DNA of 64,000 bases from Escherichia coli (GTDB lineage: Bacteria > Pseudomonadota > Gammaproteobacteria > Enterobacterales > Enterobacteriaceae): NCBI RefSeq assembly GCF_041248615.1, contig NZ_CP158426.1; one strand, 5' to 3'. Below are positions 54,601 through 60,600 of this stretch, one piece after another. The position numbers are program-made. Numbering within the stretch: position 1 is the first letter of the stretch; each line of letters begins with the position of its first letter.

Positions 54601-57600
54601 TGCAGACGCGTCTGGGTCGTGAAGACAGCGAGTATCTCGCCCGCTCGGTGCCGTTCTACGCCGCTAATCAACCGCTGGCGGATATCAGCGAGATGCGCGT
54701 GGTGCAGGGAATGGACGCCGGGCTTTATCAAAAACTGAAACCGTTGGTCTGTGCGCTGCCGATGGCCCGCCAGCAAATCAACATCAATACCCTGGACGTC
54801 GCGCAAAGTGTGATTCTTGAGGCGCTGTTTGACCCGTGGTTAAGCCCTGTACAGGCGCGGGCGTTATTACAACAACGTCCGGCGAAGGGCTGGGAAGATG
54901 TCGATCAGTTTCTTGCTCAGCCGCTACTTGCAGACGTCGATGAGCGTACTAAAAAACAGCTAAAAACCGTCCTGAGCGTGGACAGCAATTACTTCTGGCT
55001 GCGTTCAGATATCACCGTGAATGAGATTGAACTGACGATGAATTCGTTAATTGTCCGCATGGGCCCACAACACTTTTCTGTTCTCTGGCATCAGACAGGA
55101 GAAAGTGAGTGAGTTCCATGCTTGAGATTTTTTTCCCGCTTTGCGCCGCTGATCCCATCCGCTGGCAGCGCCGTACACCCGACGTGGAGTGCGGCATCTG
55201 GCCTGACGTTGCTGATGAATGTCTCCAGCAATGGCTGCAAACTGATGCGATTCGACTCTATATTCCCGGCGAATGGATCAGCGTCTGGCAGGTTGAACTG
55301 CCTGATGTGCCCCGTAAGCAGATACCGACGATTCTGCCCGCCTTGCTGGAAGAAGAGCTGAACCAGGATATCGATGAACTGCATTTCGCCCCGTTGAAAA
55401 TCGACCAGCAACTGGCAACCGTAGCTGTGATTCACCAGCAGCATATGCGCAACATTGCGCAATGGTTGCAGGCAAACGGCATCACCCGCGCTACCGTCGC
55501 GCCAGACTGGATGTCCATTCCTTGTGGGTTTATGGCTGGCGATGCGCAACGGGTTATCTGCCGCATCGATGAATGCCGGGGATGGAGCGCCGGGCGGGCG
55601 CTGGCTCCGGTCATGTTCCGTGCACAGCTCAATGAGCAGAATTTACCGCTTTCGCTAACCGTGGTCGGCATTGCACCGGAAGAACTATCTGCATGGGCTG
55701 GTGCGGACGCCGAACGCCTGACCGTTACGGCTCTGCCAGCCATTACCACTTATGGCGAACCGGAAGGGAACCTGCTAACAGGGCCGTGGCAGCCTCGTGT
55801 CAGCTACCGAAAACAGTGGGCGCGCTGGCGGGTGATGATTCTGCCGATATTGCTGATTCTGGTTGCGCTGGTAGTGGAACGGGGCGTGACGTTATGGAGC
55901 GTCAGCGAACAGGTGGCGCAAAGCCGCACCCAGGCGGAAAAAAAGTTCTTAACACTGTTCCCGGAGCAGAAGCGGATTGTGAATTTGCGTTCCCAGGTGA
56001 CGATGGCGCTGAAAAAATATCGCCCGCAGGCCGACGATACCCGGCTGCTCGCAGAATTGTCAGCGATCGCCAGTACCCTGAAATCAGCGTCACTTACCGA
56101 CATCGAAATGCGTGGTTTCACCTTTGATCAAAAACGCCAGACGCTTCACCTTCAGCTACGGGCTGCAAACTTTGCCAGCTTCGACAAACTGCGTAGCGCA
56201 CTGGCGGCAGATTATGTTGTGCAACAGGACGCGTTACAGAAAGAGGGTGATGCGGTTTCCGGCGGCGTAACGTTGCGGAGGAAATAACATGTTACGCGAT
56301 AAATTTATTCACTATTTTCAGCAATGGCGTGAACGCCAGTTAAGCCGTGGCGAACACTGGCTGACACAACACCTGGCGGGGCGTTCTCCGCGTGAAAAAG
56401 GCATGTTACTGGCAGCGGCGGTGTTCCTGTTTAGCGCCGGATATTACGTCCTCATCTGGCAGCCGTTGAGCGAACGGATAGAACAACAGGAGACGATGTT
56501 GCAGCAGCTGGTGGCAATGAACACCCGACTGAAGAGCGCCGCGCCGGATATTATTGCAGCGCGAAAATCTGCCACAACAACGCCTGCGCAGGTATCGCGG
56601 GTCATCAGTGACAGTGCTTCCGCGCACTCGGTGGTCATCAAGCGGATAGCCGAGCGTGGGGAGAATATTCAGGTCTGGATAGAACCTGTGGTGTTTAATG
56701 ACCTTCTGATATGGTTAAACGCACTGGATGAAAAATATGCGCTGCGGGTGACACAAATTGATGTCAGTGCTGCTGAGAAGCCTGGGATGGTGAATGTGCA
56801 GCGGCTGGAGTTGATAAGAGGATAAGTGTTCCAGTAAATTCCTTACCTGTGAAATTCAGTCCGAAAGGTGAGTGTATAATCTTCTTATCCACTCACCGAG
56901 TTAAATATTTTTGCAATAAGAAATATCCCACTTCCGCCATCACTGAATGTTCTGCAAAACGACAGATACGAGTTCTCTCCTGAAACAGCCCTGCGTCCTA
57001 TAAATATGCTTACGTGTGGCAATACATCATGATTATTAATAGATGCAATGAATCATTAGGTAGCAATTGATAGGTCAAAACATATAGGATAATTCTTGTG
57101 TGATCTGTATGTTGTGTAGCCTGGAAATTAGTAAAATTCCTGGAGATAATCAGAGAGGGAATTTCAAATAGTATAATAATTTCCCAAGAAACTATTCGTC
57201 GATTTTAGGAAAAGTCTGCTCAGGTATATCTACCGAGGGATAATGCTGGCTGTAACGCTGGTTAAAATAGATACACAAAATAATCAAGATGTATATTTTA
57301 ATCGACGAAAATAATTACTTCCGGGATTATTGATGCGACTTAAATAACACCATTTAAATGTGATATAAATCACAAATATGGCTGTGAAGAGGGTGCTGTA
57401 GATATAAATAAGAAGTACATGAGTGAATTTTAAATAGGGGAATAGTTTCTCGCTAAACAATTTGTTGGTGATCAATCACATGCGTTCTGGTTTGAGGCAG
57501 ATTGCAGGTGTTGTTACGCATAAAATTCATAGGTGGTATTATAATCAAGTAGTTAACAGTAATAGTAAAAAATAATTTCTTGCGAAATTAGCAGCCCATT

Positions 57601-60600
57601 TTGAATAAGTGTGTTCCGGAGTAATCCAGAGCGCATGCTGCTTTACGTCTTTTTCAAGCCATGTTGGTTAAGCAAAAAGAGGTAGAAATAATTTCCTGAG
57701 AAATTAACTCAACATTCTGAAATGGCCAGTTTTCTGAAATTACCAGAAGACCGAATACATTCATGCCTGAAGAATGGATTAGAAGAAACGAGACGGAAAT
57801 AGATCTATTTATCCCTGCGGAAATAATTTCTGATGAAATTGTTTTCGGCTATTAAAAAGGTCAAACCGGCTGAGTGAATTTTATCCAGTTACAAACAAGT
57901 ATTACCTCCAGTGTATTGGTAGCTGTTAAGCCAGGGGCGGTAGCATACCTGAAGAGAATAGGATCACATCACCAAATGGCAAGAAGTGGATTTGAAGTCC
58001 AGAAAGTCACCGTAGAGGCATTATTTCTACGAGAAATACGAACACGCTTTGGTAAGTTCCGTCTGGGATATCTGTGGGCGATTCTCGAACCCTCTGCGCA
58101 TTTGCTGATACTGTTGGGCATTTTTGGTTACATTATGCACCGCACGATGCCAGACATCTCATTCCCGGTGTTTTTACTTAATGGCCTGATTCCCTTTTTT
58201 ATCTTTAGCAGTATCAGCAATCGTTCTGTAGGTGCTATTGAAGCGAATCAGGGGCTGTTTAATTATCGACCAGTAAAACCCATCGATACGATCATTGCGC
58301 GTGCATTGCTTGAGACACTGATTTACGTTGCTGTTTATATATTGCTTATGCTTATCGTCTGGATGGCAGGCGAATATTTCGAAATAACAAACTTTTTACA
58401 ACTTGTGCTCACCTGGAGTCTGCTGATCATTCTTTCATGTGGCGTCGGCTTAATATTCATGGTCGTTGGCAAAACCTTCCCTGAAATGCAAAAGGTCCTG
58501 CCGATACTGCTTAAGCCGCTGTATTTCATCTCCTGCATCATGTTCCCTTTACACTCGATTCCAAAGCAATACTGGTCATATCTACTCTGGAACCCATTAG
58601 TGCATGTCGTAGAGTTAAGCCGCGAGGCAGTTATGCCTGGCTATATCAGCGAAGGCGTGAGTCTGAACTACCTTGCAATGTTCACTCTGGTCACCCTGTT
58701 CATCGGTCTGGCGTTATACCGAACGCGTGAAGAGGCAATGCTGACATCATGATTAAAATTGAAAATTTGACGAAGTCATATCGCACGCCAGCGGGTCGAC
58801 ATTATGTCTTTAAGAATTTAAATATTGAAATCCCTTCAGGAAAAAGTGTTGCCTTTATTGGTCGCAACGGAGCGGGTAAATCAACGTTACTGAGAATGAT
58901 TGGCGGCATTGACCGCCCCGACAGTGGAAAGATCATCACTAATAAAACAATATCATGGCCAGTCGGCCTCGCAGGTGGATTTCAGGGAAGTTTAACCGGA
59001 CGCGAAAACGTAAAATTTGTTGCCCGGTTATACGCGAAGCAAGAAGAACTAAAAGAGAAAATTGAGTTTGTCGAAGAATTTGCCGAACTCGGTAAGTACT
59101 TCGATATGCCGATTAAAACTTACTCATCTGGTATGCGATCGCGTTTAGGCTTTGGTTTAAGCATGGCATTTAAGTTTGATTATTATATCGTCGATGAAGT
59201 AACCGCAGTCGGTGATGCCAGGTTTAAAGAAAAATGCGCTCAATTGTTTAAAGAAAGGCATAAAGAGTCTAGTTTTTTAATGGTTTCACATAGTTTGAAT
59301 TCATTGAAAGAGTTTTGTGATGTGGCCATTGTGTTTAAGGATGATAATGCGGTTGGTTTTTATGAGGATGTTCATGAGGGGATAAAATCATACCAAATAA
59401 ATGAAAATACAACTATTAAGATTTAGGCCATTACGTGAAGATATAATTTACACTCCCCAAGTTAATACATATAAGTAATTATATTAATAAATATTTATAA
59501 AAGGCATCTAAAGAATAGATGCTTAGAGCCACTTAAACTGCTGTATTGTCTAAATGTAAGAAATAACGAAATGGGTTTTTGGTGATTACTGTACTCAAAA
59601 GGAGTCAAGAATATGAAATCAATATTGTATTATTTAGAGCCACGTACAGAATTAAATGACAAATTATTTCGCTATGCAACACTACGCTCTTATCTACTAC
59701 CTGAAATTGATGGCCTTAGGATAGCTGATAAGAGCCTCGATTTTAAAATGATCGTTTCTCGTACGATTTATAATAAAGCAAAACAAAATAATTTAAAAAT
59801 GGAGGGTATCGATTTTATAATTATTGATGAAGATGTATTTGAAAAGAACTCATATCTGAAGAATATTAATGTTAGTAATGAATTATATCATGGGAATTTA
59901 AATATAAAGGCTAATGAAGAACTAAAATCAATCATATCTGCTTGCCTTCCTGTTGATTATAAACCAGATATTATTATTTCATATGAAAGCCCAGCTCCAT
60001 TTTTTAAAGAGATATTTCCATCATCTTTACTTTTAAACGCTATGTTTGGAATTTTTTCAAGGGCACCATTTCCTGCATATGGGTTATTAGACCCATGTGG
60101 TTTGTATGAATATTCATATCAATATAAATATGCTGATAAAATTCGTGCTGAGGAGATTTCAGAAGAAGAAAAGGAAGTTATAAAATTACTCAGAAGACAA
60201 AGTTCAAGAGCACTTGCTGCTTATCATCCTCTCAAGAAATATATTTCATCATTATATGAAAAATATGATCGACTTGTTGTATTAGCATGTCAAGTGGATA
60301 ACTATTTTTCTTATAATAGTTGTACCAATTATCCATCACAATATGCGATGGTGGAAGATGTTCTTTCTCAAGTTCCATCAAATATTGGTGTTATAGTTAC
60401 AGAACATGGCTATAAAAGACAAATAAGTGACGAGCAAATTGAGTCTTTAAATGAAAAATACAGTAATTTTATATATTTTTCTAAAAAAGATGTATTCACA
60501 CCAAGTCAATTTATTCTTCCTTATGTAGATGGTGCTTTATCAGTCTCGTCATCGATTGGTTATCAGGCTGCTTTATGGCAGATTCCATATTTTGGTCTTG

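Follow-up and report, generated by a model that had tools for sequence, protein, structure and literature searches.

What within the long leader of the kpsMT capsule-export locus could modulate the transcription that passes through it? Among the major virulence factors of extraintestinal E. coli are the group 2 capsules, K1 and K5 included. The unusually long 5' UTR of region 3 has been reported to lower transcription and to play a part in thermoregulation, with no discrete element defined within it so far (PMC8960920). Indeed, the kpsM UTR is said to attenuate the transcription arriving at kpsM, an effect described as 'moderating' (PMC8960920; PMC5738388). Here we analysed a window of 64,000 nucleotides from E. 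coli NRZ14408, in which the kpsM leader carries six copies of a 22-nt AT-rich palindrome, AATAATTTC-N4-GAAATTATT, in the stretch that runs from the region 3 promoter to JUMPstart/ops (Table 1). This array is a concrete handle on the leader and supplies defined 22-nt targets for mutagenesis. We tentatively favour the view that its copies act as AU-only stem-loops in the kpsM leader RNA, tuning the transcription that reaches ops.

Six copies of one palindrome ahead of kpsM

The periodic palindromic repeats proposed in an initial annotation of this DNA are real: AAATAATTTC-N4-GAAATT has three exact matches in the 64-kb window (57570-57589, 57686-57705 and 57821-57840) and none in 100 dinucleotide-preserving shuffles, and allowing up to three mismatches yields 11 matches against 0.87 expected. 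Nine of the 11 lie in the intergenic region upstream of kpsM and include both degenerate copies (57174 and 57309) that had been suggested from the sequence; a weight matrix trained on the three strong copies only scored ~128,000 positions and put the degenerate copies within ranks 5 to 12. Where five copies had been listed there are six, and copy C fills what had been a 260-nt gap, bringing the array into register with start-to-start intervals of 135, 131, 130, 116 and 135 nt.

The inverted repeat, described as 6 bp with a 4-nt spacer, is present but belongs to a longer palindrome, TAATTTC-N4-GAAATTA (7-4-7), which is perfect in two of the six copies (57573 and 57689) and deviates by a single mismatch in copies A and F (57177 and 57824); in copies A, B, C and F, 7 to 9 of 9 positions are paired. 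Across ~214 kb of E. coli DNA scanned, every site within one mismatch of the 7-4-7 pattern lies in the kpsM leader. A second, overlapping palindrome, GAAAT-A-ATTTC, is exact in the last two copies, whereas the copy at 57567-57590 reads AAAAT-A-ATTTC.

Table 1. Features of the kpsM leader, with positions in the 64,000-nt window
Feature	Position	Strand	Remark
Copy A, AATAATTTC-CCAA-GAAACTATT	57175..57196	+	inside or just 3' of the region 3 promoter
TATATC, candidate -10 hexamer	57224..57229	+	in the long allele, a start ~6 nt 3' would be 741 nt 5' of the kpsM ATG
Copy B, AATAATTAC-TTCC-GGGATTATT	57310..57331	+	degenerate; pair 2 permanently mismatched
Copy C, AATAGTTTC-TCGC-TAAACAATT	57441..57462	+	missing from the initial annotation
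D unit, 116 bp	57570..57685	+	missing in most E. coli kps loci
Copy D, AATAATTTC-TTGC-GAAATTAGC	57571..57592	+	7-4-7 core perfect
Copy E, AATAATTTC-CTGA-GAAATTAAC	57687..57708	+	7-4-7 core perfect
Copy F, AATAATTTC-TGAT-GAAATTGTT	57822..57843	+	one mismatch to 7-4-7
JUMPstart RNA element	57909..57947	+	Rfam RF01707, 53.6 bits, E = 9e-11; closes the repeat-bearing leader
ops, GGCGGTAG	57937-57944	+	within JUMPstart
kpsM, ABC transporter permease	57976..58752	+	first gene of region 3

How much of the array is transcribed? PMC8960920 places the region 3 promoter 741 nt 5' of kpsM, a distance that maps to 57120-57235 in the window and varies by allele: to 57235 in the window allele, to ~57132 with the leader of Nissle 1917 (used as the K5 strain for the start site; leader 106 bp shorter), and to ~57121 with the PMV-1 type. 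The candidate TATATC is invariant in 8 alleles; an alternative candidate -10, TATGTT/TATTTT at 57108-57113, would apply should the published K5 allele belong to the short type. Given the published promoter (PMC8960920), at least five of the six copies lie inside the 5' UTR, in agreement with the earlier suggestion that most of them are untranslated leader. They sit 133 to 667 nt 5' of the kpsM start codon, with copy F ending at 57843 and the ATG at 57976. RyhB pairing is predicted near ops, not on the palindromes (PMC11988350).

Conserved arms, free centres and a variable copy number

Considering the variation among alleles, arms and centres part company. Entropy over 51 alleles was 0.093 in the arms, 0.235 in the rest of the leader and 0.697 in the 4-nt centres (permutation p <= 0.0006), and the columns variable in 8 alleles made up 15.6%, 37.7% and 87.5%, respectively, with 28% at kpsM fourfold-degenerate sites of the same strains. 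Relative to the surrounding leader, arms are thus 2.5-fold less variable and centres 3-fold more. Constraint is strongest in copies C, D and F, whilst promoter-proximal copy A stands at background (5/15 arm columns variable). The arms of copy D show a single T-A to T-G change in 25 alleles, the six inner pairs of copy F are invariant in 45, and the arms of both are nearly invariant even among alleles 22% diverged; by contrast, the centres of copies B (in 51 alleles) and C each take 10 different 4-mers. This combination of conserved arms with free centres is a clear evolutionary signature and indicates that something reads the array; over 51 alleles, purifying selection acts on the arms and spares the centres, which makes a function likely. 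Between the two roles first proposed, operators and RNA stem-loops, the evidence leans to RNA without deciding the matter. Invariant leader columns are also GC-poorer than variable ones (29.5% against 44% GC), so AT-richness itself is conserved.

In E. whittamii the copy D centre, TCAG, is the reverse complement of the copy E centre, CTGA. Inversion of centres by template switching was rejected, with no reverse-complement pair of centres found within a copy.

The expectation that other kpsM leaders would carry the motif was borne out within the genus and not beyond it: every aligned Escherichia group 2 leader has the array, whereas the kpsM upstream regions of 35 other enterobacterial species lack it and retain JUMPstart only. 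JUMPstart is the sole part of the leader common to other genera, and a check of those genera for different repeated palindromes found none. The repeat-bearing leader is, then, a lineage-specific addition. Even within E. coli its length differs, as copy D is absent in ~70% of kps loci through two different deletions, one removing precisely the D unit (PMV-1 type) and the other 106 bp of it (Nissle 1917); the unit is absent in 28/51 alleles and in 25 of the 36 full-length rows from an even sample of 1,754 matching genomes. Long and short alleles form a natural copy-number polymorphism that could be correlated with capsule level.

Where did the array come from? Flank identity between units, though faint, exceeds random (p = 0.02 to 0.04), and ATAATCA lies 29 nt 5' of the palindrome in copies A, B and D. 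Because the units share this homology, the array was probably born when a ~130-bp unit was duplicated in tandem. The copies are paralogous units of one tandem array, which rules out the remnants of an unrelated repeat element envisaged earlier.

Stem-loops, operators or nucleation points

How might such an array work? In the scenario we favour, duplication would have assembled the region 3 promoter and leader from units bearing one AT-only palindrome each, with selection then keeping the arms whilst flanks and centres drifted. The transcribed copies B to F would fold into short AU-only stem-loops with a 7-bp stem, UAAUUUC/GAAAUUA, and a free 4-nt loop; as the self-complementary arms are common to all copies, these could also pair with one another within the leader RNA. 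Such structures may affect how the ~740-nt untranslated RNA folds, pausing along it or its stability, and the folded leader could in turn set the share of transcription arriving at ops, the RfaH loading site, which would account for the published 'moderating' effect. That the copies work as RNA, and that they are tied to attenuation, is what we infer.

The pattern of arm substitutions supports this reading. In the inner seven pairs of copies B to F, sense-strand polymorphisms turn Watson-Crick pairs into G·U at six pairs and into C·A at one; A>G and C>T changes are seen in the arms, their mirror images almost never. By tree parsimony the ratio of G·U-type to C·A-type changes is 13:1 in B to F and 2:7 in copy A (Fisher p = 0.001), and 13:1 also departs from the background transition bias of 66:49 (binomial p 0.005), though tree-based counts are inflated by recombination and distinct polymorphic pairs only give 6:1 (p = 0.13). 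This leaning towards G·U-type substitutions belongs to the transcribed copies and not to copy A, and a symmetric protein on double-stranded DNA should not tell the two types apart; the asymmetry therefore favours RNA stem-loops. Pair 5 of copy C, G-C where the other copies have A-T, is the one paralogous change that keeps pairing, and C-to-T variants there give G·U. The gradient of constraint, from copies C, D and F down to background in copy A, and the polar conservation of the left arm (see below) also count for stem-loops.

Folding predictions are more mixed. The whole leader is predicted to fold at -187.7 kcal/mol against -163.2 ± 5.8 for shuffles (z = -4.3), with D paired to E and F as a local hairpin. 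In the window allele, copy F forms a predicted 13-bp hairpin (-13.5 kcal/mol, z = -4.9) whose extension breaks in other alleles, and RNAalifold found no covariation among copy F orthologues. In isolation, the D and E hairpins are weak (-3.6 and -5.2 kcal/mol) and do not outdo shuffles (z about -0.8 to -1.0), with pair probabilities of about 0.1 within the full leader; a comparison of temperatures predicted -3.6 and -4.2 kcal/mol at 37 °C, and -6.1 and -7.3 kcal/mol at 20 °C. Pairing alone, moreover, leaves the shared arm sequence of six copies unexplained unless only weak AU stems are assumed to be suitable, and the fact that copy D is dispensable in most strains counts against stem-loops. It is rather unlikely that five identical AU-only stem-loops, weak and mutually complementary, constitute a new kind of leader attenuator. 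If they did, the balance between local and copy-to-copy folding would shift with temperature or a bound factor and so determine, ahead of RfaH recruitment at ops, how RNA polymerase pauses, whether Rho gains access or how the RNA decays, and a copy number of five or six would tune capsule output among lineages.

Could the palindromes be read as double-stranded DNA? A serious, if somewhat less probable, alternative is that they are operators for a sequence-specific dimeric regulator with the half-site TAATTTC and a non-contacted 4-bp centre, and that sites placed every ~130 bp along promoter and leader build a looped or roadblocking nucleoprotein complex controlling both initiation and elongation. 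The identical half-sites, free centres and 7-4-7 geometry speak for this and resemble phage 434/P22-type operators, in which the protein makes no contact with the central bases; the inverted half-sites at a set distance that a symmetric dimer needs are perfect in D and E and carry one mismatch in A and F. Arms that stay identical whilst flanks have diverged nearly to randomness argue for sequence-specific recognition. Copy A lies within the promoter region, and related sequences occur in the promoter region of the co-regulated kpsF, one at ~-118 to -96 from the published PR1-1 start; a stretch of this non-transcribed region, 24/28 identical to copy F plus its flanks, points to a factor acting on DNA. 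YbdO is a candidate: the His-tagged protein shifts a 300-bp fragment 5' of kpsM, with 241-fold ChIP enrichment (PMC9141747). The promoter is not part of this fragment, which takes in copy F and the margin of copy E. Evidence of protein binding, from YbdO and from the H-NS/SlyA footprint coordinates (PMC8960920), is indirect. Against a symmetric dimer stand both the substitution asymmetry and the unequal constraint on the half-sites: D and E retain the left arm's 5' AA despite mismatched, variable partners, whereas the outer positions of the right arm vary. Spacings of 116 to 135 bp are no constant number of helical turns, no further site occurs in ~214 kb of E. coli DNA, so that no regulon is visible, and a literature text search for the motif gave no bacterial factor. 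Nor does the motif agree with the consensus of any regulator described for this promoter (SlyA, FNR, Fur, LysR box). The FNR consensus is TTGAT-N4-ATCAA with the G required, and the copies match its 5-4-5 geometry with a half-site, ATTTC, that lacks this G; a LysR-type box, as for YbdO, has T-N11-A in a dyad centred on a base, whereas the dyad centre here falls between bases and the T/A pairs are T-N6, N8 or N10-A. A SlyA site (TTAN6TAA, TTAGCAAGCTAA; PMC5797941) was likewise rejected, the copies being TAA-N12-TTA and the adjacent TTAGCAGCCCAT and TTAACTCAACAT lacking the TAA half.

A less specific reader, H-NS, is improbable. Here, the arms would be preferred contact or nucleation points for the H-NS family, with two AATT-containing tracts 11 bp apart on one helix face, seeding a silencing filament along the leader at 20 °C that SlyA remodels at 37 °C. 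A review (PMC8960920) gives H-NS footprints at the region 3 promoter from -135 to -21 and from +141 to +219, the downstream one being required for repression at 20 °C. As given there, they cover or abut copies A and C (start at 57235) or B (start at ~57120), and the F-like kpsF-promoter element falls inside the H-NS II/SlyA footprint, -121 to -79 (PMC8960920); the conserved AT-richness of the leader fits too. However, these footprints are long, chance overlap is likely and overlap was judged from coordinates rather than sequence, copies D to F are outside the footprints, an exact palindrome repeated six times is not needed, and the substitution asymmetry is left unexplained. Least probable, we think, are functionless leftovers of tandem duplication, kept alike by chance or gene conversion. 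Paralogous units with faint flank homology and shared ATAATCA, the loss of one unit in most strains with the capsule locus still there, and the lack of an array in other genera would all suit this idea, but neither the contrast in variability between arms and centres nor the near-invariant arms of D and F in diverged alleles does, and gene conversion would homogenise the centres too, yet each copy's centre is distinct.

Likeness to known elements

An Rfam covariance-model search of 56000-59000 (both strands, permissive filters, E <= 1) returned JUMPstart only and left the palindromes unmatched, and in the literature searched, text hits to the motif or to TTTC-N4-GAAA-type sites were limited to a primer and to STAT6 sites of eukaryotes. 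We found no matching family or published description, though the original promoter papers (Xue 2009, Corbett 2007, Ma 2018) may mention the repeats. An intrinsic terminator was rejected, with no terminator-like site in 56800-58000 and AU-only stems, as was a CRISPR array: the period runs from 116 to 135 nt, the repeats vary at their centres from copy to copy, and the inter-repeat DNA, unlike spacers, is conserved among strains and paralogous among units.

With the operators of lac, gal, deo and phage 434/P22 the array shares palindromic half-sites at a fixed 4-bp gap around a sequence-free centre, and several sites ~100 bp apart flanking a start site; the six candidate operators here, however, span 650 bp, mostly far 3' of the start, and are strand-polar. 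With H-NS downstream elements (proU DRE, bgl, the kps H-NS/SlyA sites) the array has in common AT-rich conserved DNA 3' of a thermoregulated, horizontally acquired promoter, some copies overlapping published footprints (PMC8960920); it differs in being exact repeated palindromes with GC-containing centres rather than generic AT-rich or curved DNA, and D to F fall outside those footprints. CsrB/CsrC likewise hold several similar weak hairpins in one untranslated RNA (predicted for the array), but in CsrB the GGA loops are conserved and the stems vary, the reverse of the situation here. The AU/GU stems, part of a thermoregulated operon, may recall fourU/ROSE thermometers in that prediction makes them marginal at 37 °C but firmer at 20 °C; those elements mask the ribosome-binding site, whereas the nearest copy ends 133 nt before the ATG, and masking of the Shine-Dalgarno or start codon was rejected. 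REP/BIME and ERIC are also short imperfect palindromes in transcribed intergenic DNA, ERIC at ~127 bp being close to the ~130-bp period, but they are dispersed genome-wide and GC-rich, whereas the arms have 19% GC and occur in one leader only; this identity was rejected on finding no copy outside the kpsM leader in the ~214 kb sampled, less than a whole genome. JUMPstart identity was rejected too, RF01707 matching 57909-57947 alone. JUMPstart/ops nonetheless shares leader and strand with the array, which may, like JUMPstart/ops, act in cis on elongation towards the capsule genes; JUMPstart is single-copy, conserved across genera and bound via RfaH, whilst the palindromes are unrelated in sequence and confined to Escherichia.

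The palindromic array and its setting

Six palindromes, copies A (promoter-proximal) to F (nearest JUMPstart), lie in register along the 1,150-nt gap between yghD and kpsM, in a window that matches E. coli NRZ14408 (NZ_LT599825.1) at 100% identity. The three strong copies of the initial annotation, D, E and F, stand as claimed, each an exact AAATAATTTC-N4-GAAATT that 0 of 100 shuffles matched; allowing up to three mismatches, 11 matches were found against 0.87 expected, 9 of them in the gap. A scan with a matrix derived solely from these three copies placed A (57174/57177), B and C within the top 12 of ~128,000 positions. 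The array is indeed roughly periodic, as had been proposed, but one copy had been overlooked: C, the sixth, fills the double-length gap. Likewise, the inverted repeat is present, but the symmetric unit exceeds the 6-4-6 structure first described, as D and E carry a perfect TAATTTC-N4-GAAATTA, whilst A, B, C and F match AATAATTTC-N4-GAAATTATT at 7 to 9 of 9 positions. No site within one mismatch of TAATTTC-N4-GAAATTA occurs beyond the kpsM leader in ~214 kb of E. coli DNA.

Features between yghD and kpsM, in window coordinates
Feature	Position	Remark
yghD (gspM)	56289-56825	
Inverted repeat GGTGAGTGTATAA / TTATCCACTCACC	56867-56897	13 bp, 5-nt loop, then T-rich run; begins 42 nt past yghD stop codon; probably the gsp operon terminator
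(G/A/T)ATAATCA	57145-57152, 57280-57287, 57541-57548	29 nt upstream of A, B and D
Copy A	57174 (start)	135 nt to B
Copy B	57309 (start)	131 nt to C; centre 57319-57322
Copy C	57440 (start)	130 nt to D; centre 57450-57453
TATAAT	57540-57555	Perfect, inside leader; overlaps IHF-core-like AATCAAGTAGTTA; invariant in 8 alleles
Copy D	57570 (start)	116 nt to E
Copy E	57686 (start)	135 nt to F
Direct repeat TTCTGAAATGGCCAG / TTCTGAAATTACCAG	57715-57746	Starts 17 nt apart; just past E
Copy F	57821 (start)	
JUMPstart with ops	57909-57947	Rfam, 53.6 bits
kpsM	57976-58752	First region 3 gene, group 2 capsule locus

The published region 3 promoter lies 741 nt upstream of kpsM, with H-NS protecting -135 to -21 and +141 to +219; the UTR is reported to moderate the transcription that reaches kpsM (PMC8960920; PMC5738388). 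JUMPstart is the sole Rfam element in the gap, and the palindromes belong to no Rfam family; nor do they qualify as a terminator, an RNA thermometer masking the ribosome-binding site, REP/ERIC elements or a CRISPR array, and they fit neither SlyA, FNR nor LysR boxes. A literature search, with the primary promoter papers outside its reach, found no earlier description, and as far as searched the array is previously undescribed.

Arms, centres and copy number

The two arms of each palindrome and the 4-nt centre between them evolve very differently. Across 8 alleles (identity down to 77.6%), variable columns make up 15.6% of the arms, 37.7% of the rest of the leader and 87.5% of the centres (Fisher tests: arms versus rest of leader, p = 2e-5; centres versus rest of leader, p = 1e-6); among kpsM fourfold-degenerate sites, the same strains show 28% variable columns. 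Pairwise diversity (π) is 0.058, 0.14 and 0.36 in the same order, and entropy 0.093, 0.235 and 0.697 across 51 distinct alleles, gathered in a metagenome scan anchored on JUMPstart (permutation p <= 0.0006). Each copy has a centre of its own between arms that have remained similar, a pattern that gene conversion fails to explain and purifying selection on the arms does explain; the feature is real and selectively maintained. No other 4-nt windows in the leader are as diverse as the centres of B and C: among 51 alleles each shows 10 different 4-mers, against 8 in the next best window, a diversity that exceeds what lack of constraint alone predicts.

One unit is missing in most E. coli: short leaders account for 25 of 36 full-length rows when the ranked genomes are sampled evenly, and for 28 of the 51 distinct alleles. 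They are derived, because the long form is common to all divergent lineages, E. whittamii included. In the PMV-1 type exactly 116 bp are missing, with the junction inside AAATAATTTC, whereas Nissle 1917 (L049, NZ_CP007799.1 3429900-3431400) lacks 106 bp, leaving AAATAATTTC|AAATAATTTCCTGAG. Nissle 1917 thus carries a second kind of short allele, in which a tandem AAATAATTTC AAATAATTTC remains, so the D-E interval was deleted at least twice, or once and then changed by a 10-bp duplication. In the same record (L048 47483-50000), kpsS directly overlaps kpsT and the annotation shows no serotype-specific region 2 separating the two, which could reflect assembly collapse or a real deletion. The most divergent leader, the Esc16/JJ1886-type allele (L004 / L046; 77.6% identity), has a 10-bp insertion within the left arm of E and a B shifted in register by an indel; A, D and F are intact, and its A is a perfect AATTTC-CACA-GAAATT.

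RNA stem-loops or DNA sites

Our tentative preference is for AU-only RNA stem-loops that act on the leader transcript, one of the two roles first offered, the other being operators for a dimeric regulator. Among the seven pairs closest to the centre in B to F, the copies inside the transcript, polymorphic pairs exchange Watson-Crick and G·U at 6 and become C·A at 1, which favours sense-strand pairing; parsimony on a neighbour-joining tree likewise gives 13 G·U-type against 1 C·A-type, although recombination inflates these tree counts and the distinct sites alone (6:1) yield p = 0.13. Copy A, in or just downstream of the promoter, has 2 G·U-type and 7 C·A-type (Fisher p = 0.001), and the substitution asymmetry of B to F departs from the background transition bias of 66:49 (binomial p = 0.005). 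Pairing is also favoured by a G-C in C where other copies carry A-T, and by the entire leader, which folds better than shuffles (z = -4.3) and in the predicted fold pairs D with E and forms a local hairpin at F. The left-arm 5' AA, retained in D and E although its partner is not conserved, was counted for the sense-strand reading. On the other hand, isolated D and E hairpins fold no better than shuffles, and F shows no covariation and no conservation of its extended stem.

RNA stem-loops must also contend with related sites in DNA: the non-transcribed kpsF promoter region holds GGAAATAATCAATTGATAAATTGTTTT, 24/28 identical to copy F and its flanks (z = 5), together with an E-like AATAATCTCCTGAAAAAT, and YbdO binds a 300-bp fragment containing F without the promoter (PMC9141747). 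An array of DNA operators would accommodate these sites, and we consider it a serious though somewhat less likely alternative, the sense-strand asymmetry of B to F sitting less easily with it. The F-like GGAAATAATCAATTGATAAATTGTTTT occupies roughly -118 to -96 relative to the published PR1-1 start, within the published H-NS II/SlyA footprint (PMC8960920); that the palindromes are nucleation sites for H-NS-family proteins is nonetheless unlikely in our estimation, and that they are a functionless relic is very improbable, set against the constraint on the arms. In the window's strain, the F- and E-related sequences (L045 15550-15572, 15813-15835) lie on the kpsF-sense strand, at -343 and -603 relative to the kpsF start codon, and are identical in Nissle 1917.

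Distribution and origin of the units

Of the 5,426 complete genomes of E. coli, 1,754 carry the leader. The GTDB set holds KpsM relatives from 38 species, and the motif, whose presence in other kpsM leaders had been put forward as a check, recurs in three Escherichia entries and is absent from 35 loci of other genera (Pantoea, Rahnella, Kluyvera, Mixta and others); the array is confined to the group 2 capsule leader of Escherichia. Those 35 loci share with the window only 57899-57948 (JUMPstart), their gaps upstream of kpsM are mostly shorter (310-870 nt; one, in Phytobacter diazotrophicus L023, measures 1,673 nt), and they hold essentially no repeated palindromes there, save one unrelated pair (L038). 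Strain WCHEC040047 (L006 1265-1640) carries a relic with a frameshifted kpsM, in which the promoter and copy A are fused straight to JUMPstart and the 646-nt repeat-bearing leader (57233-57878) is absent; the arrangement either resulted from a precise deletion or shows what preceded the expansion.

Flanks outside the palindromes are faintly alike (mean identity 0.32, random pairs 0.28; p = 0.02 to 0.04), a homology that fits an array built long ago by tandem duplication of a ~130-bp unit. A and C are ~80% identical across ~25 nt through the left arm, and A, B and D share the upstream (G/A/T)ATAATCA. This motif resembles a -10 hexamer and also a Fur-box core, and Fur is reported to bind the region 3 promoter region (PMC8960920). 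Perhaps the TATAAT within the leader is an internal promoter; it could equally be a mere remnant of the duplicated unit's -10.
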